A DNA stretch of 40,757 nt from Methanobacteriaceae archaeon (GTDB lineage Archaea > Methanobacteriota > Methanobacteria > Methanobacteriales > Methanobacteriaceae), in contig PWMT01000071.1 in the NCBI GenBank assembly GCA_003558085.1, positions 1-40,757 of the forward strand, read 5' to 3'. The position numbers and the translations under genes are program-made. Shown one piece after another: positions 1,228 to 26,129 of the stretch (positions are counted from its first letter, which is position 1; every line of letters begins with the position of its first letter). The notes under the pieces are model-generated. The model saw only the letters and a program-made list of their open reading frames with translations. It was not told the origin of the DNA and did no database searches.

Positions 1228-1977
1228 TTAGGTGGCAGTTTCAGTACTCATATAAATGTATAATGCTGCAGCTAGCACTGCTCCTACAATGGGGCCGATA
1301 ATATAGATAGGGAAAAGTTCCCATAAATTCTCTCCACCCAACACAAATACTCCTAAATAGGGGCCGAAAGTACGGGCTGGATTTATAGATGCACCGGTAA
1401 TGTTTCCTATAGTGGTGATAATTCCTGCAACAGTTAGACCAATAATGAGACCAGCAAATCCAGGAGTAGCTTTTCTATCAATAGCCACTCCCATGATGGC
1501 AATCATTAATAGGAAAGTACCTATACTTTCAACCAATATGGCCTGCAAATACCCTATTCCAGGAAATGGTGCAGTGGCTCCTAAACCACCAATTGTAACC
1601 GCATCCATTCCCACTGAAGCGGCAAATAAAAAACTGGCCACCCCAGCACCAGCTAATTGGGCTAAAATATAAGGAATAACATCCCTTGAGGGGAATTTTT
1701 TAATAGCCCATAGGGCTATGGTAACTGCTGGATTAATATGGGCACCTGAAACTCGTCCGAAAGCATAGATAGAGGCGGTTATCGCGAAACCGAATGCTAA
1801 ACCTATTGCTAACCAGTCACCTAGCCCGCCTAGTATTCCGATACCAATATTAAATTCTGTGGTGGTGGCCTGACCTGCACTGATCATCAAGGTGATAGCT
1901 GCTGCACCGGCACCAAAAAAGACCAGCATGAAAGTTCCCAGGAATTCGGCTAACATTTTTTTGGTAAGAGAAACCAT
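1228..1977 (-). CDS. aqpM: MIP-family channel, AqpM-type aquaporin
   Basis: AEFLGTF helix 1, two NPA motifs (HINPAVT, SINPARTF), six hydrophobic helices; F/I/S/R filter pattern resembles archaeal AqpM. Confidence 0.9.
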   Translation of the reverse strand: MVSLTKKMLAEFLGTFMLVFFGAGAAAITLMISAGQATTTEFNIGIGILGGLGDWLAIGLAFGFAITASIYAFGRVSGAHINPAVTIALWAIKKFPSRDVIPYILAQLAGAGVASFLFAASVGMDAVTIGGLGATAPFPGIGYLQAILVESIGTFLLMIAIMGVAIDRKATPGFAGLIIGLTVAGIITTIGNITGASINPARTFGPYLGVFVLGGENLWELFPIYIIGPIVGAVLAAALYIYMSTETAT

Positions 1978-1982
1978 TTTAA

Positions 1983-2189
1983 TTACTCCTTCAATCCTTC
2001 ATAACAGGGCGGACATAAAATTCGAGGTATAGTTTTCTCTAATTTCTCAGAAGGGAATGGATATCCTCCTTCCCATATATCCACTTCTTCTCGTATAGCA
2101 TGATCCATACAAAGACCCATACCACACACTATGCAGACAGCTACCGCTTCACTATCTTTACCCATCTGGGCACATATATAACATTTCAT
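1983..2189 (-). CDS. DUF2180-like small Cys-rich putative zinc-binding protein
   Basis: CYIC, CIVC, CMDH, CPPC motifs in 68 aa; GGGAGG RBS; 5 bp from the aquaporin start. Confidence 0.75.
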   Translation of the reverse strand: MKCYICAQMGKDSEAVAVCIVCGMGLCMDHAIREEVDIWEGGYPFPSEKLEKTIPRILCPPCYEGLKE

Positions 2190-14202: not shown

Positions 14203-14598
14203 TCAAAATATTCTTTTAGCATCTCTAATTATTTGAGCTACTTTAGAATCAATTGCATTTCGATTAGGGTTCCCTACTTCATCTCTCCAATAAATACTGT
14301 ACCATCGGTCATTTAATTCAAAAAGATATTCTGCTCCGATTCTATTAAATTAAAGCTTTATATATTCCTTAAAATAGACAGAAAGTCCGTTTATAATAGT
14401 TTCACCGTAATCAATCATTTTGTATCCTACTTTTTCATATGATGTTGTGGAAATTCTGCTTTTTGCTTTTTCTATATTTAAACGCAAATCCATCCGTCCC
14501 AATCCGGATAAATCTCCTAAATATACAATAAAATCTTTTTGAGCAAATTGCCTTATCCATTCAACCCTTTCTCTCCTGTGGGTTGTGTATACTGAACT
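14203..14598 (-). pseudogene. Degraded hypothetical gene
   Basis: 132-codon protein-like frame (..QKDFIVYLGD..YFKEYIKL*FNRIGAEYLFELNDRWYSIYW..KRIF*) with internal TAA at 14350-14352 and a broken 5' end. Confidence 0.5.
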
Positions 14599-14953
14599 TT
14601 ACTTTGGTTCTTCATTTGCTTTTACAAAGTGAAGATGTCTCACCTGCAGTACCACTATTTAAACTGGACATATTTTAGTGGTACAATAACCAATATCCAT
14701 TTTTTAAATCTTTACTTTAGATTAATCCTAGAATACTTAAAAGGATTACAACGAATATTATTACTATAATCCAGTACAAAATGCCTCTCATAATTTCACT
14801 TCCTCACATCCAGATATTATTTAATTAATCCTGGAAAGGTCAGACTATTTTCGAATTTTAAGGGGTTATTGAAAATTTAAAGAGAAAATTGTTTCAGTTT
14901 AGATTTGATTTTTCTTAATTCTCTGGCTTTTTCTTTTAGTTTTTTAGAATTTA

Positions 14954-15760
14954 TTATTCAATATCTACTTTAGTTATATCTTCTGTTACTTTAGGGAGAG
15001 TAATAGTCAGTTTACATTCTTCGTATTTAGCTTTGGCTTCTTTAACATTAATTTTCGTAGAAAGATTTATAGTTCTATTTGCTTTGCCATAAATTCTCTC
15101 TTTTTGAATGAATTCAGCATCTTCAATTTCAGGTTCTTTTTTAAACTTTGCACTTATTTCTACCCTATTTTTTGAAATGCCAATATCTATATCATCTTTT
15201 TTAACACCAGGAATGTCGACTATTAATGTGATTGTAGTGTTGGTTTCTAAAACATCGACTAAAGGTTTAGATTTTACGGGTTGAGTTTTTGTGTAATCAG
15301 ATATTACCTCATCTACTTGCACTTGCCCTTCCTTTAATTTAGATACTAGCTCGTTAAAAAATTTTTCTGCAGGAGTAATTCCTTCTTTTTTACTTTCTTT
15401 TTCAAATTTTGCTTTCTGCTCTTCAAGTTCTTTTTTAAATTCACCCCATTTTTCCTCTAGATCTTCTTCTTCTTTAACTTCCTCTATCTTGCTGCTTACA
15501 TCTTCTTTCATTTCTTTAGCAGATTCCTTCGTTTCTTCCACTTTTTTCTCAACATCACCTTTAGTTTCTTTAGCAGATTCCTTCGTTTCTTCCACTTTTT
15601 TCTCAACATCACCTTTAGTTTCTTTAGCAGATTTCTTCGCCTCGTCCACTTTATCCTTTACCTCTTCTTTTCTTTCTTCACTCAAATCTTTTCCTTTTTC
15701 AACTTTTTTATGGGTTTTCTTTTTAATTTCATCGGTTGATTCAGATATATCATTTCTCAT
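14954..15760 (-). CDS. Hsp20/alpha-crystallin protein with a long N-terminal LEA-like charged repeat region
   Basis: C-terminal PLVDVLE..DIPGVKKDDIDI..ER.YG..AKYEE.KLTITLPK..VDIE; about 150 N-terminal aa K/E-rich. Confidence 0.88.
   Translation of the reverse strand: MRNDISESTDEIKKKTHKKVEKGKDLSEERKEEVKDKVDEAKKSAKETKGDVEKKVEETKESAKETKGDVEKKVEETKESAKEMKEDVSSKIEEVKEEEDLEEKWGEFKKELEEQKAKFEKESKKEGITPAEKFFNELVSKLKEGQVQVDEVISDYTKTQPVKSKPLVDVLETNTTITLIVDIPGVKKDDIDIGISKNRVEISAKFKKEPEIEDAEFIQKERIYGKANRTINLSTKINVKEAKAKYEECKLTITLPKVTEDITKVDIE
15511..15633. repeat. Perfect 54 bp tandem repeat (2.3 copies) encoding AKETKGDVEKKVEETKES
   Basis: 15511-15564 identical to 15565-15618, plus a 15 nt third start. 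Confidence 0.95.
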
Positions 15761-15833
15761 TTAAATCACCATTTTAAATGAATCTGACGAGAATTTAAGA
15801 ATCTGAAAAAAAAAATAATTTAAAATTAAATTA

Positions 15834-16073
15834 TTATTCTTTCTTTAAAGGTGTGCCTTTGATTAGAACATTATCACCAATAGATTCAATCATTTCATAG
15901 GACACTATTTTATGATCACCTAGTCCAATTTTTGCAGATATCCCTGCTTCTTTTAAAATAATTGATTTTACGGTGTTATTTTCAAAATCCCATTCAACGT
16001 CATCAACTAATCCTATTTGATCTCCAGATTCATCTACAACATCTTTTCCAAGTAATTCATCTGCTATTTTCAT
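15834..16073 (-). CDS. PRC-barrel domain protein
   Basis: ELLGKDVVDESGDQIG.VDDVE.D...IESIGDNVLI. Confidence 0.88.
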   Translation of the reverse strand: MKIADELLGKDVVDESGDQIGLVDDVEWDFENNTVKSIILKEAGISAKIGLGDHKIVSYEMIESIGDNVLIKGTPLKKE

Positions 16074-16082
16074 TTTTACCAA

Positions 16083-16246
16083 CTCCAAATTAACAAATAC
16101 AATTTTTATTTAGGCTAAGTAGGAAAAAAAATTATAAAAGCCATGGAGGTGTCTTCCATCATTTTTTCCCTTAGCCTAAATTTTTTTTGGAGGAGATTAC
16201 AGGAGTTCGCGAAAACTCCTATAAAATTCAATGACTCTCCTCAAAA
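16083..16246 (-). promoter_or_regulatory. Structured leader RNA candidate, copy A, upstream of the PRC-barrel gene
   Basis: Hairpin AUAGGAGUU/AACUCCUGU, AUCUCCUCCAAA, 11 bp stem 16109-16119/16170-16180; repeated at 16574-16646. Confidence 0.6.
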
Positions 16247-16258
16247 TTATTCTATCTT

Positions 16259-16432
16259 TTAAGTTCTGCCGTTTATGGCCTGATTCTTTGCTCTTATAAA
16301 ATCAAAAGGATCTCTAAAACCACCGAAAGGCTGAAATTCACATCCACATTCCGGGCATGGTTGGGCTTCTGTTCCCGGTTGGATATTAGGACATTTCCTA
16401 TTAGGACAACGCCAAATATTCAATGATACCAT
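16259..16432 (-). CDS. Small zinc-ribbon-like protein
   Basis: WRCPNRKC...PCPECG; GGGAGA RBS; start at 16432 or 16444. Confidence 0.65.
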   Translation of the reverse strand: MVSLNIWRCPNRKCPNIQPGTEAQPCPECGCEFQPFGGFRDPFDFIRAKNQAINGRT

Positions 16433-16442
16433 TTTTTTAAAC

Positions 16443-16820
16443 ATCTCCCTTAACTATTCATTATTTTAAGAGGCTAAGGAAAAAAAAAATAGTCATAAAA
16501 AAGACTTGAGGCAGTCTCTACCATACCCTCCCTTTTTTGGTTTTGGAGAGAAAATGGATTATTTAGTTAATATTTTTTTCCCTTAGCCTAAATTTTTTTT
16601 TTTGGAGGAGATTACAGGAGTCCGTGAAAACTCCTATAAAAATTCATTTTTTTTAGGTAAGTTAAACTTAAAAGTATAATTTTAAGCTAAAACGAGACTT
16701 AACCTAACCTAAAACCTAACTTAGACTAAATATCTGCCATAAAAAAATTAGAATAAAAAATAGTTGCTTGTGGAGCATTTTTTTTTATCTTTTTTTTGTA
16801 GATATAATTGAGATGACTCG
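16443..16820 (-). promoter_or_regulatory. Long structured leader, copy B, upstream of the zinc-ribbon gene
   Basis: TTTATATA box near 16846-16853; stems 16471-16479/16581-16589, 16614-16637 and about 16653-16711; G-U pairs favour the minus strand. Confidence 0.55.
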
Positions 16821-16940
16821 TTAACTAATACTATATCCTGCCTAGTATATAAAGTGATCGATAAGCTTCCAAATATAAAAATAAGGTAAAACAGCCTAAA
16901 TTAAATATAAATGCTTTAAAATATAAGGTTTAACAATATA

Positions 16941-17200
16941 TAACCAAATCATATTTGAATTTACCATAATAACATAAAAAATAATACGAATAACCAACAA
17001 TAAGCAAACCATCATTTAAATTACCATTATAACAGTAAAAATAAAAGATATTTCAAAAAATAAGCAAACCATCACTTAATTTTTCTTTATAATAGAAATA
17101 ATATAAGAGATTTCAAATAATAAGCAAAACATCACTTAATTTACCCTTTATAATAGAAATAATATAAGAGATTTCAAATAATAATCAAAATCATTTAATT
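16941..17200. repeat. 60 bp-period degenerate tandem array (4.3 units)
   Basis: Units start at 16941, 17001, 17061, 17121, 17182 with core TAAGCAAACCATCA(C/T)TTAA. Confidence 0.85.
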
Positions 17201-17602
17201 TATGATGAAAAAGCAAGAAAGAAGGTTATTCCAGGAAAAACCAGGGAACACCCACGGGATGTTTATTTTAATGCTATGAAAAATGCAGTGGATGTTTTTG
17301 GAGATAATCAGGTTAGTTCCTGGATTTTAATGGGATTGGAACCTCCTGAGAAGACCATTGAGGGTATCCGAAAAATAGCTGAAACTGGAGCCATACCCCT
17401 CCCCAAACCATTTCGCCCTTTATTTGGTTCTGACTATGAAACAAGAAAACCATCCACAGTAAAAGATGCAGAGTTAATCTATACTGAGTGGTTTGAGACC
17501 ATCAAAGGATGTGGATTGAATCCTCTAAAAGCAAAGGCTGGTTGTGTAAGGTGTAATGCCTGCTTTCCCATCCGTGAATTATGGAAATTTGGTATAGATT
17601 AA
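17192..17602 (+). pseudogene. C-terminal fragment of an MSMEG_0568-like radical SAM protein
   Basis: IPGK..AVDVFG.NQVSS.ILMGL..PFRP..G..KAGCVRCNAC; in-frame stop at 17165; no CxxxCxxC motif. Confidence 0.7.
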
Positions 17603-18353
17603 TTCTAAAATTAATTTTACTTACAAGAAATACTAATTTGCTAATCCTCGAATTTGATCTGAAGTTATCATTAAGGCACTGTCAAAAACTTGGGGGGTTT
17701 TTGCAATTCGTGATAATTTAAGGAGATAGGAATTTTTAGAGCACGAGATACAATAAATAAGAATAAAATTGCTATAACTAATGATCAGATGAGAAATATA
17801 AATTAATTATTGGGCAGGGGTTTAAACACAATGGTGTTATTTTCACATTTTTAAAAATTAATAAAATCATCAAGAAGTATATTAAATAAAATGAACTAAA
17901 TATGGAAGAATAAACAAGAACGGAAAGAAAAACTAGAATATTCAGTTAATTTTAAAATAAATCATTCAAAAATGCTAAGGAAGAAATTCAAACAAGCTTT
18001 TCTATAATGAATTTAATAAGTTATTCATTTATTAGCGATTCTTTGATGTCTTACTTTAGAACTTTTTTTTGCATTCTTAAAAGAGAGAAAATCTTTTACT
18101 TAAATAAATAATGTTATTTCGGGTTTTATAAAAAGAGAAACTCAATCTTCAGAATAATCCCAGAATCCTTAAAAGAATTATAATAAATATTATAACTATA
18201 ATCCAATATAAGATGCCCCTCATAATTAAACTTCCTTTAAATTCAGTATGTACTTATAATTAACCCCCATAAGACCCTATCATATCATTTGAAGGTTATT
18301 TAAAATAATAAAGTGCTTCTTGGTTATTTTTTTTGTTTAGATTTAATTTTTTC

Positions 18354-18554
18354 CTATGTTTCTTTGGTTTTTTCTTTTATTTTACTTTCTGCTTTTTTAA
18401 CTTCCCCTTTAAGTTCTTCAGCTTTACCTTTTAATTTACCTTTAAGTTCTTCAGTTTTACCACTAACTTCTCCTTTCTTTTCCTTGGCCTTACCTTTTAC
18501 TTCACCCTCTTTTTCCTTGGCCTTACCCTTCAATTCAGCAGTCTTCTCAACCAT
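18354..18554 (-). CDS. Small LEA/CsbD-like hydrophilic repeat protein
   Basis: GGGAGA RBS; 11-residue periodic (E.KGKA.E..G) K/E/G-rich sequence. Confidence 0.75.
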   Translation of the reverse strand: MVEKTAELKGKAKEKEGEVKGKAKEKKGEVSGKTEELKGKLKGKAEELKGEVKKAESKIKEKTKET

Positions 18555-23607: not shown

Positions 23608-25986
23608 TTAAGCTCCGGCACCACCTGCAAGGGAAGTGTTACCTAAATCCATTATCAGGGGTTTGGGTAATTCCAATCTTAGAGTTTCTTTTAAAACATC
23701 TTCTACTGATTCTACCAGAATAAACTCTATCTCTTTTTTAACCTCTTCTGGAATATCATCCAAATCTTTCTGGTTATCTTTAGGTAAGATGATTCTTTTA
23801 ATTCCCGCACGATGACCGGCCAGTACCTTCTCTTTAATACCCCCTACCGGGAGCACGGCACCTCTTAAGGATATTTCTCCGGTCATGGCCAGTTCAGGAT
23901 CTACTTCATGACCAGTTACTAGTGAAGCAATCGTGGTTAAAAGAGCTACACCAGCAGAAGGTCCGTCTTTTGGAATGGAACCGGAAGGAACATGTATGTG
24001 TAAATCTTTTTTATCAAATTCAACCTCTTGTAGATTGAAAGATAATCTAGATCGTATAAGGCTTTGAGAAATCTTAGCTGATTCTTTCATCACATCTCCT
24101 AACTGACCAGTAAGCATCAATTTACCGGTTCCAGGCATGAAAGCTCCTTCAATAAATAGGATATCTCCACCTACCGGGGTCCAGGCTAATCCAGTTACTA
24201 CTCCTGGAGGATTCCTTTCATTGATCCGGTCATGACGAATGGTTTCATGGCCTAAAAGATCATATAACATGTCTGTTTTAACCTGATAAGGTAATTCCAC
24301 TTTACCTAGCACAATTTTTTCAGATGCCACCCGGGCCACGGCAGATAATTGTCTTTTAACTCCCCTTACTCCTGCTTCTTTGGTATATTTTTCTATAATG
24401 GTTTTTAAAGCTTCATCATCTATTTGTAGTTGACTTTCATCCAATCCGTGGTCTTCTAGAACCTCTTTAATTAAGTGATACTTGGCTATATGGAATTTTT
24501 CATGACTGGTGTAACTACCAATTTCTATGATTTCCATACGATCGCGGAGTGGTGCAGGTATATCCCGTAAGTAATTGGCGGTGGCAATGAAAAATACATC
24601 GGAGAGATCATAAGGCACTTCTAAATAATGGTCAGAGAAAGTATGATTCTGTTCAGGGTCTAGTACTTCCAGAAGAGCGCTAGCTGGATCTCCATTATAT
24701 GATTCTCTAATTTTATCCACCTCATCCAGAATAAATACTGGATTTACCTCACCAGCGCGCTTCATCCCCTGGATGATTCTACCAGGGAGTGCTCCTAGAT
24801 AGGTTCTACGATGACCTCTAATTTCGGATTCATCTTTAACTCCACCTAAACTGATTCTAACATATTTACGGCCTAAAGCCTCGGCTATACTTTTTCCTAA
24901 ACTGGTTTTACCGGTTCCAGGTGGTCCTACTAATAAGAGTATTGAGCCTTGTTTGTTTTTCTTTAATTTCATCACGGTAAGGTGTTGTATGATACGATCT
25001 TTAACTTTATCCAAACCGTAGTGTTCCTCATCCAGTAATTTCCGAGCAGCTTCAATATCGATATCTTTAATTTCACTTTCACCCCAGGGAAGACTAGTTA
25101 AAAGATCCAAGTAATTGCGTATTACATTTTCTTCAGAACTGTGTGGACCCTGACGATCTAGTTTGTTCAATTCTTCCCAGGCCACTTCTTTGACTTCGGG
25201 AGGCATTTGAGATTCTTCAATCATTTCCCGGTAATCTTTTCGTCCGGCAACACCTTCATATTCGTTTAATTCTTCTTTTATGGCTTTCAACTGTTCTTTC
25301 AACATGTTTTCCCGGTGTTTTTTATTCATTTCATCATTGAATTTTGCAGCCATTTCCATCTGGAATTGTATAGATTCTTTTTGCTCAATTAGAATATCCA
25401 GGAATTTTAAACTCTTTTTCTTTAAGGAGCGTATTTCTAATAAGGCTTGTTTTTGTTCCATTGTTAACCTTAGGTAGGGGAATATAAATCCAATAACTTG
25501 ATTGATATCATTTAATTTATTTAAATGATCAATATAGTTTTCTGATCCTTTAAAATTTTTACTTATTTCTTTTACCAGGCTTCTAACATGTTTCAGGATT
25601 TCTTCTTTGTTTTCGTGATCGAGATCATTGATATCAGGAATAATTTCATAGTGAGCTTTGTAATCGGCTCCATCACTGATTAGTTCCTTTATCTCCACTC
25701 TTTTTTGGATATCCACGTTTAACTGATAGAATTCCTTTATTTCCTTAATATTTTCAATTTTTATTAAGGTTCCTATCTGGTAAAAATCAGATTCAATGTA
25801 TAAATCATTAGTATTGGATTCTTTAACCGCCAAAGCTATGGCGTAATTATTATCTTGGGTCACCCAAGAATACATTTCACTACCCAGGGCTTTACCAATT
25901 TTTAATTTCATATTAGTTTCAGGTAATAATACCGTATCCGGTATAACTACTACTGGTAGTTCTTTATCTAATTTCATTTCTTTCAT
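23608..25986 (-). CDS. lon: ATP-dependent protease La, LonA type
   Basis: N-domain, Walker [38 protein letters not shown] catalytic Ser, GGIKEK Lys; no TM insert; RBS favours ATG at 25986. Confidence 0.95.
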
Positions 25987-26129
25987 GATATCACACCAAG
26001 GAATAGGATACTGATTGCAGACCAACCATTTACATCAGCTATAGGATTTCTTTATCTTATCCTATAATGGCCAGAATCAGTATGCTTTTAAATAATACTT
26101 ATTTATTTTTTTTTTAAGCATCATAGGGA

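Follow-up and report, generated by a model that had tools for sequence, protein, structure and literature searches.

A duplicated module with a candidate structured leader upstream of an orphan zinc-ribbon gene in a Methanobacteriaceae archaeon

What kind of element stands, in two copies, before two consecutive minus-strand genes of a Methanobacteriaceae archaeon? We analyzed a 40,757-nucleotide (nt) stretch (assembly GCA_003558085.1, contig PWMT01000071.1, positions 1 to 40,757; hereafter the window) in which three consecutive minus-strand open reading frames (ORFs) encode a small zinc-ribbon protein, a PRC-barrel protein, and an Hsp20-family protein. A preliminary description of this DNA had proposed a duplicated leader RNA that acts as a translational switch on a PRC-barrel/Hsp20 operon. 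Our analysis supports this only in part: the module is probably a lineage-restricted upstream unit of the orphan zinc-ribbon gene, present in two sister methanogen species, and in this genome it has probably been copied once more, now standing directly before a relocated PRC-barrel/Hsp20 pair. As to function, we tentatively favor, at somewhat less than an even chance, a lineage-specific structured leader that would damp expression by attenuation at U-tracts and by masking of the Shine-Dalgarno (SD) sequence. The draft genome comprises 1.86 Mb in 175 contigs at 35% G+C and encodes McrA, which marks it as a methanogenic archaeon; the public runs that contain this stretch are salt- and soda-lake metagenomes, and a look for RNA runs over 14900-17300 returned none.

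Anatomy of the duplicated module

The repeat relates positions 16162-16230 to 16574-16646 (91.8% identity over 73 columns, E 4.7e-21, blastn), with sub-segments at 16181-16226 versus 16596-16641 (46 nt, 96%) and 16162-16195 versus 16574-16607 (34 nt, 91%). This reproduces the ~70-nt element previously placed before the two genes, and the homology exceeds that length: it takes in the whole stem-loop and reaches 16097 in one copy (copy A) and 16466 in the other (copy B). The module is a real, duplicated upstream unit of 120-180 nt. Contigs of three public DNA runs span its junctions without differences (stretches 16150-16770, 15898-16210, and 16118-16298), so the arrangement is not an assembly artifact; comparison of four public DNA runs returned paralog and strain differences only, with no new alleles useful for covariation.

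Read 5' to 3' on the gene strand, the module opens with TGAAT and TTTTATAGG, followed by an 11-bp hairpin (hairpin 1) that includes those TATA-like letters, the tract AAUCUCCUCC, and a run of A8-A11. A long stem comes next, its 5' arm ending in GGG(A)6-7 and its 3' arm preceded by U8-U10; it encloses a small hairpin and then a further U4-U6 tract, and 30-40 nt separate the stem from the SD. All module features lie on the minus strand.

Copy B (16466-16646), upstream of the zinc-ribbon ORF, has box, hairpin 1, tract, A11, and long stem. Its start TGAATTTTTATAGG (16633-16646) resembles a B recognition element (BRE) plus TATA box, and the order TGAAT or TGAC, T-run, ATAGG or ATGGG recurs in six of six copies. 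Hairpin 1 (16612-16639) has 11 bp, U.G pairs among them, and a 6-nt loop; the tract (16604-16613), a mimic of the anti-SD sequence, is followed by A11 (16593-16603). The inverted repeat and the fold place the 5' arm of the long stem (AGGCUAAGGG plus A7) at 16573-16589, and at 16497-16519 the inner hairpin leads to a U6 tract (16497-16502). The inverted repeat defines a block at 16471-16489 made of a U10 tract (16480-16489) and the 3' arm CCUUAGCCU (16471-16479). For the zinc-ribbon SD, GGGAGAU at 16443-16449, the predicted partner is AAUCUCC at 16607-16613.

Copy A (16097-16230) lies between the zinc-ribbon and PRC-barrel ORFs. Hairpin 1 (16197-16224) forms an 11-bp stem in the minimum-energy fold, and the tract (16189-16198) is followed by A8 (16181-16188). 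Inverted repeat and fold again define the long-stem arms (5' arm 16162-16177, 3' arm 16112-16123), between which, at 16124-16159, lie the inner hairpin (16143-16159), a U4 (16136-16139), and a U8 tract (16124-16131). Computed as inverted repeats, the arms are 16108-16119/16170-16181 (12 nt, 100%) in copy A and 16471-16490/16570-16589 (20 nt, 90%) in copy B. The SD region of the PRC-barrel gene, UUUGGAG at 16083-16089, is native to that gene and conserved in its ortholog in the sister species G002. Upstream of copy A, UUUUGAGGAGA (16236-16246) is complementary to the tract and A-run; it starts 12 nt after the zinc-ribbon stop codon (16259-16261) and is in the RNA only when transcription enters from the zinc-ribbon gene. 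The hairpin, CUCC tract, and long stem of the preliminary description were thus recovered, as were the U-A versus U-G difference between copies at the innermost stem pair and the complementarities to GGGAGAU, UUUGGAG, and UUUUGAGGAGA, coordinates included.

The same module is found at two further places in this genome (n=4 copies): one copy precedes a paralogous zinc-ribbon ORF (contig C103), and the other, degenerate, lies on contig C77, where tract and hairpin pairing are lost and no ORF of at least 80 aa follows on the element's strand. In a second sister species, G003, two tandem copies precede its zinc-ribbon homolog (68% identical). The zinc-ribbon ORF of the window occupies 16259-16432 (57 aa, second ATG) or 16259-16444 (61 aa, ATG at 16444) and encodes a small orphan protein with four Cys; it belongs to no Pfam or NCBIfam family and has generic zinc-ribbon look-alikes only, and a search of 5.8 billion proteins returned only the protein itself and its paralog. 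Just before the zinc-ribbon starts (16430-16466, and likewise on C103) the order TGAAT, TTA..., and GGAG as SD resembles the module start at 16633-16646 (TGAAT, TTTATA, GGAG). From this likeness, the module may have originated when the SD region was duplicated in tandem, in which case the hairpin 1 GGAG would be an SD paralog.

The second gene pair has a different history. In G002 a PRC-barrel ORF (86% identical) is followed by an Hsp20 ORF, and no module is present. Between this genome and G002, nucleotide homology is confined to 14950-16096; it begins 23 nt ahead of the PRC-barrel ATG and ends at the hsp20 stop, so the surroundings of the gene pair differ between the two species. Copy A ceases to resemble copy B near 16097, G002 homology starts at 16096, and both genomes read GTTAA at the join, which suggests recombination at this microhomology. 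In our genome the pair directly adjoins a secondary duplicate of the module that lies upstream of the zinc-ribbon gene, and the module's primary partner is the orphan zinc-ribbon gene, not the stress genes. With no module at the G002 pair and homology that begins only at 16096, the element is not a property of the PRC-barrel/Hsp20 pair, contrary to the proposed control of these stress genes. Module copies precede the zinc-ribbon and PRC-barrel ORFs; the PRC-barrel ORF spans 15834-16073 (79 aa, PF05239, E 4.3e-10), and the Hsp20-family ORF (14954-15760, 268 aa, PF00011) has no module copy before it and follows only after a T10 run (15806-15815) located between the PRC-barrel stop and the hsp20 start, with T15 at the same place in G002. 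By archaeal rules this run makes a simple operon, as once supposed, doubtful.

Gene-strand folding, predicted SD masking, and U-tracts

Folding supports an RNA structure on the gene strand. Copy A folds at -40.5 kcal/mol (z -5.67) and copy B with its ribosome-binding site (RBS) at -56.8 kcal/mol (z -4.13), values reached by 0 of 200 shuffles in each case, and the long stems of both copies are present in the minimum-energy folds. The sense strand folds better than the antisense strand in six of six copies, both in absolute energy and relative to each strand's own shuffles (z sense/antisense: -5.5/-3.7, -4.7/-1.3, -6.9/-2.9, -2.7/-1.0, -3.9/-1.8, and -2.6/-2.3), and in all six the sense duplex of the long stem equals or exceeds the antisense one in stability (margin 0.3 to 6.8 kcal/mol). 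Because MAFFT gave no common columns for the long-stem arms, we compared them by duplex folding. Between this genome (AGGCUAAGG/CCUUAGCCU) and G003 copy 1 (GGGUCAGG/CCUGACCU), two adjacent pairs are altered on both sides and a one-base indel is itself paired, a compensatory pattern; the long stems of G003 copy 2 and of the C77 copy carry one mismatch each. Hairpin 1 is paired in 94.9% of 59 cells, against 36-52% when the partner is slid, and its four pairs that vary on one side only are all kept through G.U, including an A-to-G change in the TATA-like letters of G003. The gene-strand structure proposed earlier is supported in silico by this strand bias and by the compensatory arm changes between species. 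A leader peptide from ATG or TTG codons at the copy starts was discarded as noncoding, the frames differing in length and sequence.

The tract between hairpin 1 and the A-run mimics the 3' tail of 16S rRNA. SD words enriched before 1012 ORFs (GGAGG, AGGTG, GGTGA, GTGAT) imply the anti-SD AUCACCUCCU; the anti-SD was taken from these words, 16S rRNA being unassembled in this genome and not found in the searched parts of genomes G001-G003. The tract AAUCUCCUCC matches this inferred anti-SD at 9 of 10 positions, and 71 words of the form ATCNCCTCC are present in 3.7 Mb, both strands counted. In partition-function folding, the copy B SD pairs with the tract at P 0.97-0.99 across three 5'-end contexts and at 25, 37, and 50 °C; the corresponding values are 0.91-0.97 for the C103 zinc-ribbon leader and 0.34-0.68 in G003. 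Freeing the SD is predicted to cost 4.8 kcal/mol in copy B, 5.9 on C103, and 3.5 in G003 (3.4-5.9 overall). On these models the zinc-ribbon genes could plausibly be subject to SD masking, which is weak at PRC-barrel. The sequestration of the RBS by the tract, as first suggested, accordingly divides: it is predicted for the zinc-ribbon genes (0.91-0.99), and for copy A it is weak and depends on the 5' end.

Two features that the preliminary description overlooked, the U-tracts within the long stem and the BRE/TATA-like start, open attenuator, promoter/operator, and small-RNA-gene readings. U-tracts stand just before the 3' arm in every copy (U4+U8 in A, U6+U10 in B, U4+U7 on C103, U5+U5 on C77, and U7 in each G003 copy) and always between the tract and the SD. 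In the available part of one study, archaeal terminator signals are tracts of 4-7 U that need no hairpin, with two U4 tracts giving the highest termination efficacy (PMC8716108). The copies carry what that part of the source describes, a single tract or a pair of tracts with at least 4 consecutive U (PMC8716108). The likeness to the terminators read with aCPSF1 that are described there extends to two such U-tracts after a small hairpin, here upstream of a coding region; those terminators stand at gene ends, whereas the U-run of the module lies within the 3' half of a long stem and is a candidate terminator only (PMC8716108). Since only 38 nt lie between the long stem and the ATG, too few for both a promoter and an SD leader, mRNA of the downstream gene must read through the U-tracts. 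The upstream A-run can pair with the U-run much as the antiterminator does in bacterial terminator/antiterminator attenuators, and the long stem could thereby hide the U-tract.

From these observations—sequence anatomy, strand bias in folding, compensatory arm changes, predicted pairing, and distribution—we infer transcription of the module, termination at its U-tracts, masking in vivo, and any regulation. In the reading we favor, the module would be transcribed on the gene strand as a structured leader in the order 11-bp hairpin, single-stranded AAUCUCCUCC mimicking the 16S rRNA 3' tail, A-run, and long stem, the last forming an A-run/U-run clamp around the small hairpin and the two U-tracts behind that hairpin. 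Many transcripts would end at the U-tracts, which amounts to attenuation; in those that read through, the anti-SD mimic would mask the SD, strongly in the zinc-ribbon genes and weakly in PRC-barrel.

Several observations weigh against this proposal. At copy A, pairing of the PRC-barrel SD is weak (0-0.6) and 5'-end dependent, with a summed pair probability of 0.0 to 4 of ~7; it falls to zero when the RNA includes 16236-16246, which pairs with the tract (fold of 16275-16050). The orthologous pair in G002 does without the module. Long-range SD pairing of at least 0.9 is predicted for 4.5% of 400 ordinary SD-bearing genes (at least 0.95 for 3%), so the masking prediction is only moderately unusual, and the predictions for copy B and C103 are not independent. 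A conservation and covariation check found the module in two species only, too few for a covariation test: the six copies are paralogs from these two species, and the covariation of hairpin 1 is not significant, the observed score being reached by 163 of 500 shuffles. Conservation before orthologs across relatives together with significant covariation, the mark of a conserved cis-regulatory RNA, is not seen. Template-switch repair acting on DNA can likewise produce compensatory changes in inverted repeats. Use of the BRE/TATA-like box would leave hairpin 1 outside the RNA, and with efficient termination at the U-tracts the conserved 3' arm would seldom be transcribed.

Distribution and rival explanations

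The module is narrowly distributed. A pattern scan of 301 family genomes matched three, this genome, G003, and G047, where the match is to a hairpin that lies at a gene end by chance; a covariance model built on the module's 5' part and run on 150 family genomes returned only the six training copies below E 0.02. Weaker model matches in G002, G047, G062, and G067 proved to be coding sequence, a gene-end hairpin, or plain promoter region. Loose-pattern loci (96 on genome contigs and at least 118 on metagenome contigs, in collections that may omit records close to this genome) were likewise set aside: all 214 listed are chance matches, the tract continuation occurs in none, and one Clostridium palindrome among them shares the TTATA flank only. 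Rfam covariance models run on both strands of 14500-18500 at E <=10 gave eight matches, all with E >=2.5 and with 13-25 bits against gathering scores of 50-92, in keeping with the earlier view that the element fits no recognized riboswitch class. A descriptor of the clamp architecture gave 11 raw matches in the whole genome, 9 of them overlapping at the three intact copies, some on the plus strand; the remaining matches are two unrelated loci on contig C68 (3 hits). Within this genome the clamp architecture is essentially specific to the module copies.

A palindrome lying between TATA box and start site is a typical archaeal repressor site, and operators in this position are used, for example, by heat-shock repressors of Thermococcales. 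The alternative with the best standing, which we consider doubtful, builds on such a layout: TGAAT plus TTTTATAGG would be a BRE/TATA promoter with its start ~23 nt downstream near GUAAUCUCC, the tract would become the RNA 5' end and the rest a long 5' untranslated region (UTR), and the palindrome AGGAGTT-N6-AACTCCT would serve a dimeric repressor as its DNA operator, the zinc-ribbon protein being one possible repressor. The duplication would then have supplied the relocated PRC-barrel/Hsp20 pair with a promoter. Like archaeal operators, the palindrome has 7-bp arms and a 6-7 nt spacer, directly follows a TATA-like box, and precedes stress-related genes. The box-like start is kept in six of six copies and is akin to the tRNA-gene promoters of this genome (TTATATAGGA, TTAATATAGGA, and TTTATATA), such words being common in a genome of 35% G+C; the G002 homology, starting 23 nt before the PRC-barrel ATG, implies that the native promoter region was lost and that one was needed from the new context, and the short interval between long stem and ATG is also as this reading expects.

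Other observations speak against the operator reading. In G003 both copies read TTTTATGG, which is less good as a TATA box, while at the RNA level the pair survives the A-to-G substitution as G.U; taken as DNA, the palindrome of G003 shows symmetry at 5 of 7 positions, and as RNA it pairs at 12 of 12. The stem extends through the TATA-like letters only via G.U pairs, hence on the gene strand only, and all asymmetries of the palindrome are G.U-compatible on that strand. With up to 2 changes allowed, the palindrome is nowhere else promoter-like in the genome, which leaves no regulon. Transcripts from the box would carry leaders of ~125 and ~185 nt, against a weak peak of TATA words at 40-70 nt before ATGs in this genome.

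Less probable, and in our judgment quite unlikely, is that the module is neutral or selfish: duplication-prone intergenic DNA, a piece of a larger intergenic repeat, or a remnant like a miniature inverted-repeat transposable element (MITE), its palindromes kept by DNA-level processes. It does lie inside a larger repeat at 4-5 genome places (window contig 16272-17063, and contigs C103, C77, C73, and C152), is limited to two species, has a degenerate copy on C77, shows AATGAAT-like words on both sides of several copies, and is missing from the G002 ortholog pair. In being a short noncoding repeat with inverted repeats, a degenerate copy, and a setting of repeated intergenic DNA it resembles MITEs. 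It departs from them in having only 4 copies in 1.86 Mb, an inverted repeat that is internal and not terminal, a fixed orientation to genes, and inconsistent flanking words in place of clear target-site duplications. The copies always have gene orientation and keep a fixed distance before the SD, and neither the sense-strand bias in six of six copies nor the near-complete anti-SD match of the tract suits a neutral repeat. Viral contigs held 22 loci with the 17-mer pattern and 0 matching the model, and no transposase or integrase genes lie nearby.

That each copy is a small-RNA gene is an improbable reading, a shade below the neutral one. Here a promoter box, a ~85-135 nt RNA with 5' anti-SD seed AAUCUCCUCC, a stem-loop, and a U-tract terminator would form a unit acting on SD regions in trans or in cis, the downstream genes being served by short leaders out of the A/T-rich stretch that follows the stem. 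The order box, seed, hairpin, double U-tract is that of a canonical transcription unit, TTAAAATA-like words occur after the 3' arm, two tandem units stand before one gene in G003, and the C77 copy lacks a following ORF on its strand; that ORF-less copy, however, has lost the seed. The 3' arm beyond the U-tracts stays complementary to the 5' arm across species, which is sensible only if read-through RNA matters, and were there a promoter past the stem, its start would fall at the SD or beyond it, and for PRC-barrel this SD is conserved with G002. An rRNA-tail-mimic seed would moreover bind most SDs, an odd target range.

SD-masking leaders and RNA thermometers of the ROSE and fourU types precede bacterial small heat-shock genes. 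As in those, a C/U-rich anti-SD in the 5' leader pairs with the SD, and a small heat-shock gene lies in the neighborhood; here, by contrast, the pairing is long-range and closes a ~150-nt domain instead of a local hairpin, and the module is archaeal, has no predicted melting at 25-50 °C and no Rfam match, has an orphan zinc-ribbon gene as its main partner, and leaves hsp20 without a copy. The closest published methanogen parallel, as the available part of the report presents it, is the Hsp20 leader isoform of Methanolobus psychrophilus (Mpsy_0075), an alternative 65-nt 5' UTR with mapped start sites in which the RBS is predicted to be buried (PMC5378194). Both cases involve a methanogen, predicted RBS burial at a stress gene, and alternative 5' ends that decide masking, as they would at copy A; they differ in methanogen order and share no sequence relation, and the 65-nt leader, as described in that part of the source, has no U-tract or long clamp stem (PMC5378194). 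The reading first proposed, a two-state, RBS-sequestering switch (thermometer or protein-responsive) on the PRC-barrel and Hsp20 genes, is the least probable: tract-SD complementarity in both copies, the upstream partner that frees the copy A SD in the polycistronic RNA fold, and the methanogen Hsp20 isoform (PMC5378194, available part) speak for it, but the second state lacks support, the SD helix is not predicted to open in the physiological range, which excludes thermometer behavior in silico (copy B stays paired from 25 to 50 °C, and copy A pairing rises, not falls, with temperature), no Rfam thermometer or leader family matches, the G002 pair has no module, and hsp20 lies behind the T10 run.

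Neighborhood of the locus and implications

A separate upstream module (~16650-16940, minus strand) is kept on the window contig and on C103, C77, and C73, and in G003. Its core, CTTATCGAT(C/T)CA(C/T)TTATAT(A/G)CTA, contains a consensus TATA box like that of tRNA promoters and is found on the window contig, on C103, and in G003, with the TATA part diverged on C77 and C73. It is followed by GTCATCTCAA, conserved on the window contig and C103 and truncated or varied on C77, in G003, and on C73, and then by ATGCTCCACAAGCAA, present only in the copies of this genome on the window contig, C103, and C77, with T6 and T7 runs after it. This order suggests that the upstream module may be a small transcription unit; it has no Rfam match and no match to its pattern on viral contigs, and a 20-codon hydrophobic ORF within it was dismissed, as it is not kept in G003. 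Contig depth in metagenome runs is 20-130 over the upstream module versus ~3-7 over the duplicated element and PRC-barrel part (16064-16283), and up to ~58 over the zinc-ribbon ORF in run X2; the depth of 20-130 indicates that the upstream module is multi-copy in the community.

Farther upstream, four to five tandem 60-nt A/T-rich repeats, 60-100% alike, occupy 16918-17190. Contigs C77 and C152 carry units similar to them, and the syntenic place in G003 (locus L038, ~1860-2100, minus strand) has five perfect 60-nt repeats of unrelated sequence. Contig C103 terminates within the upstream repeat, and a 102-nt overlap (99%) with the start of C152 makes it probable that these contigs join; at C103 39-4895, a 1618-aa ORF of no assigned family converges on the gene of the zinc-ribbon paralog.

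The N terminus of the Hsp20-family protein is extended by ~150 Lys/Glu-rich residues, with an internal tandem repeat (15498-15601 versus 15606-15709, 74%) and weak YtxH-like similarity. Direct repeats of ~230 nt (14715-14942 and 18147-18383, 72% alike) bracket the whole segment from hsp20 to the tandem repeats, and a 66-aa ORF, rich in Lys and Glu and with a weak CsbD-like match, overlaps the second. A full-length LonA-type protease (23608-26025, 805 aa, LON substrate-binding, AAA, and Lon_C) lies 7 kb off on the same strand; together, LonA, Hsp20, and the CsbD-like ORF make up a loosely stress-related neighborhood.

The boldest form of the leader reading would unite an SD-masking rRNA-tail mimic and an A-run/U-run clamp gating a U-tract terminator in one archaeal cis-leader, a combined transcription-attenuation and translation switch, perhaps autoregulated by the zinc-ribbon protein and portable to a stress-gene pair; we regard this as unlikely. 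It may yet emerge that the module is a long-leader promoter or a repeat in decay, and its value is limited by its presence in two species and by an orphan gene being its main attachment. Bacterial regulatory leaders are well charted, and the sources covered show few archaeal examples, though no search aimed at leader-based attenuation in Archaea was made. With terminator-type U-tracts and an rRNA-tail mimic brought together in one fold before a gene, such a module would lend itself to testing attenuation and SD masking in a methanogen.

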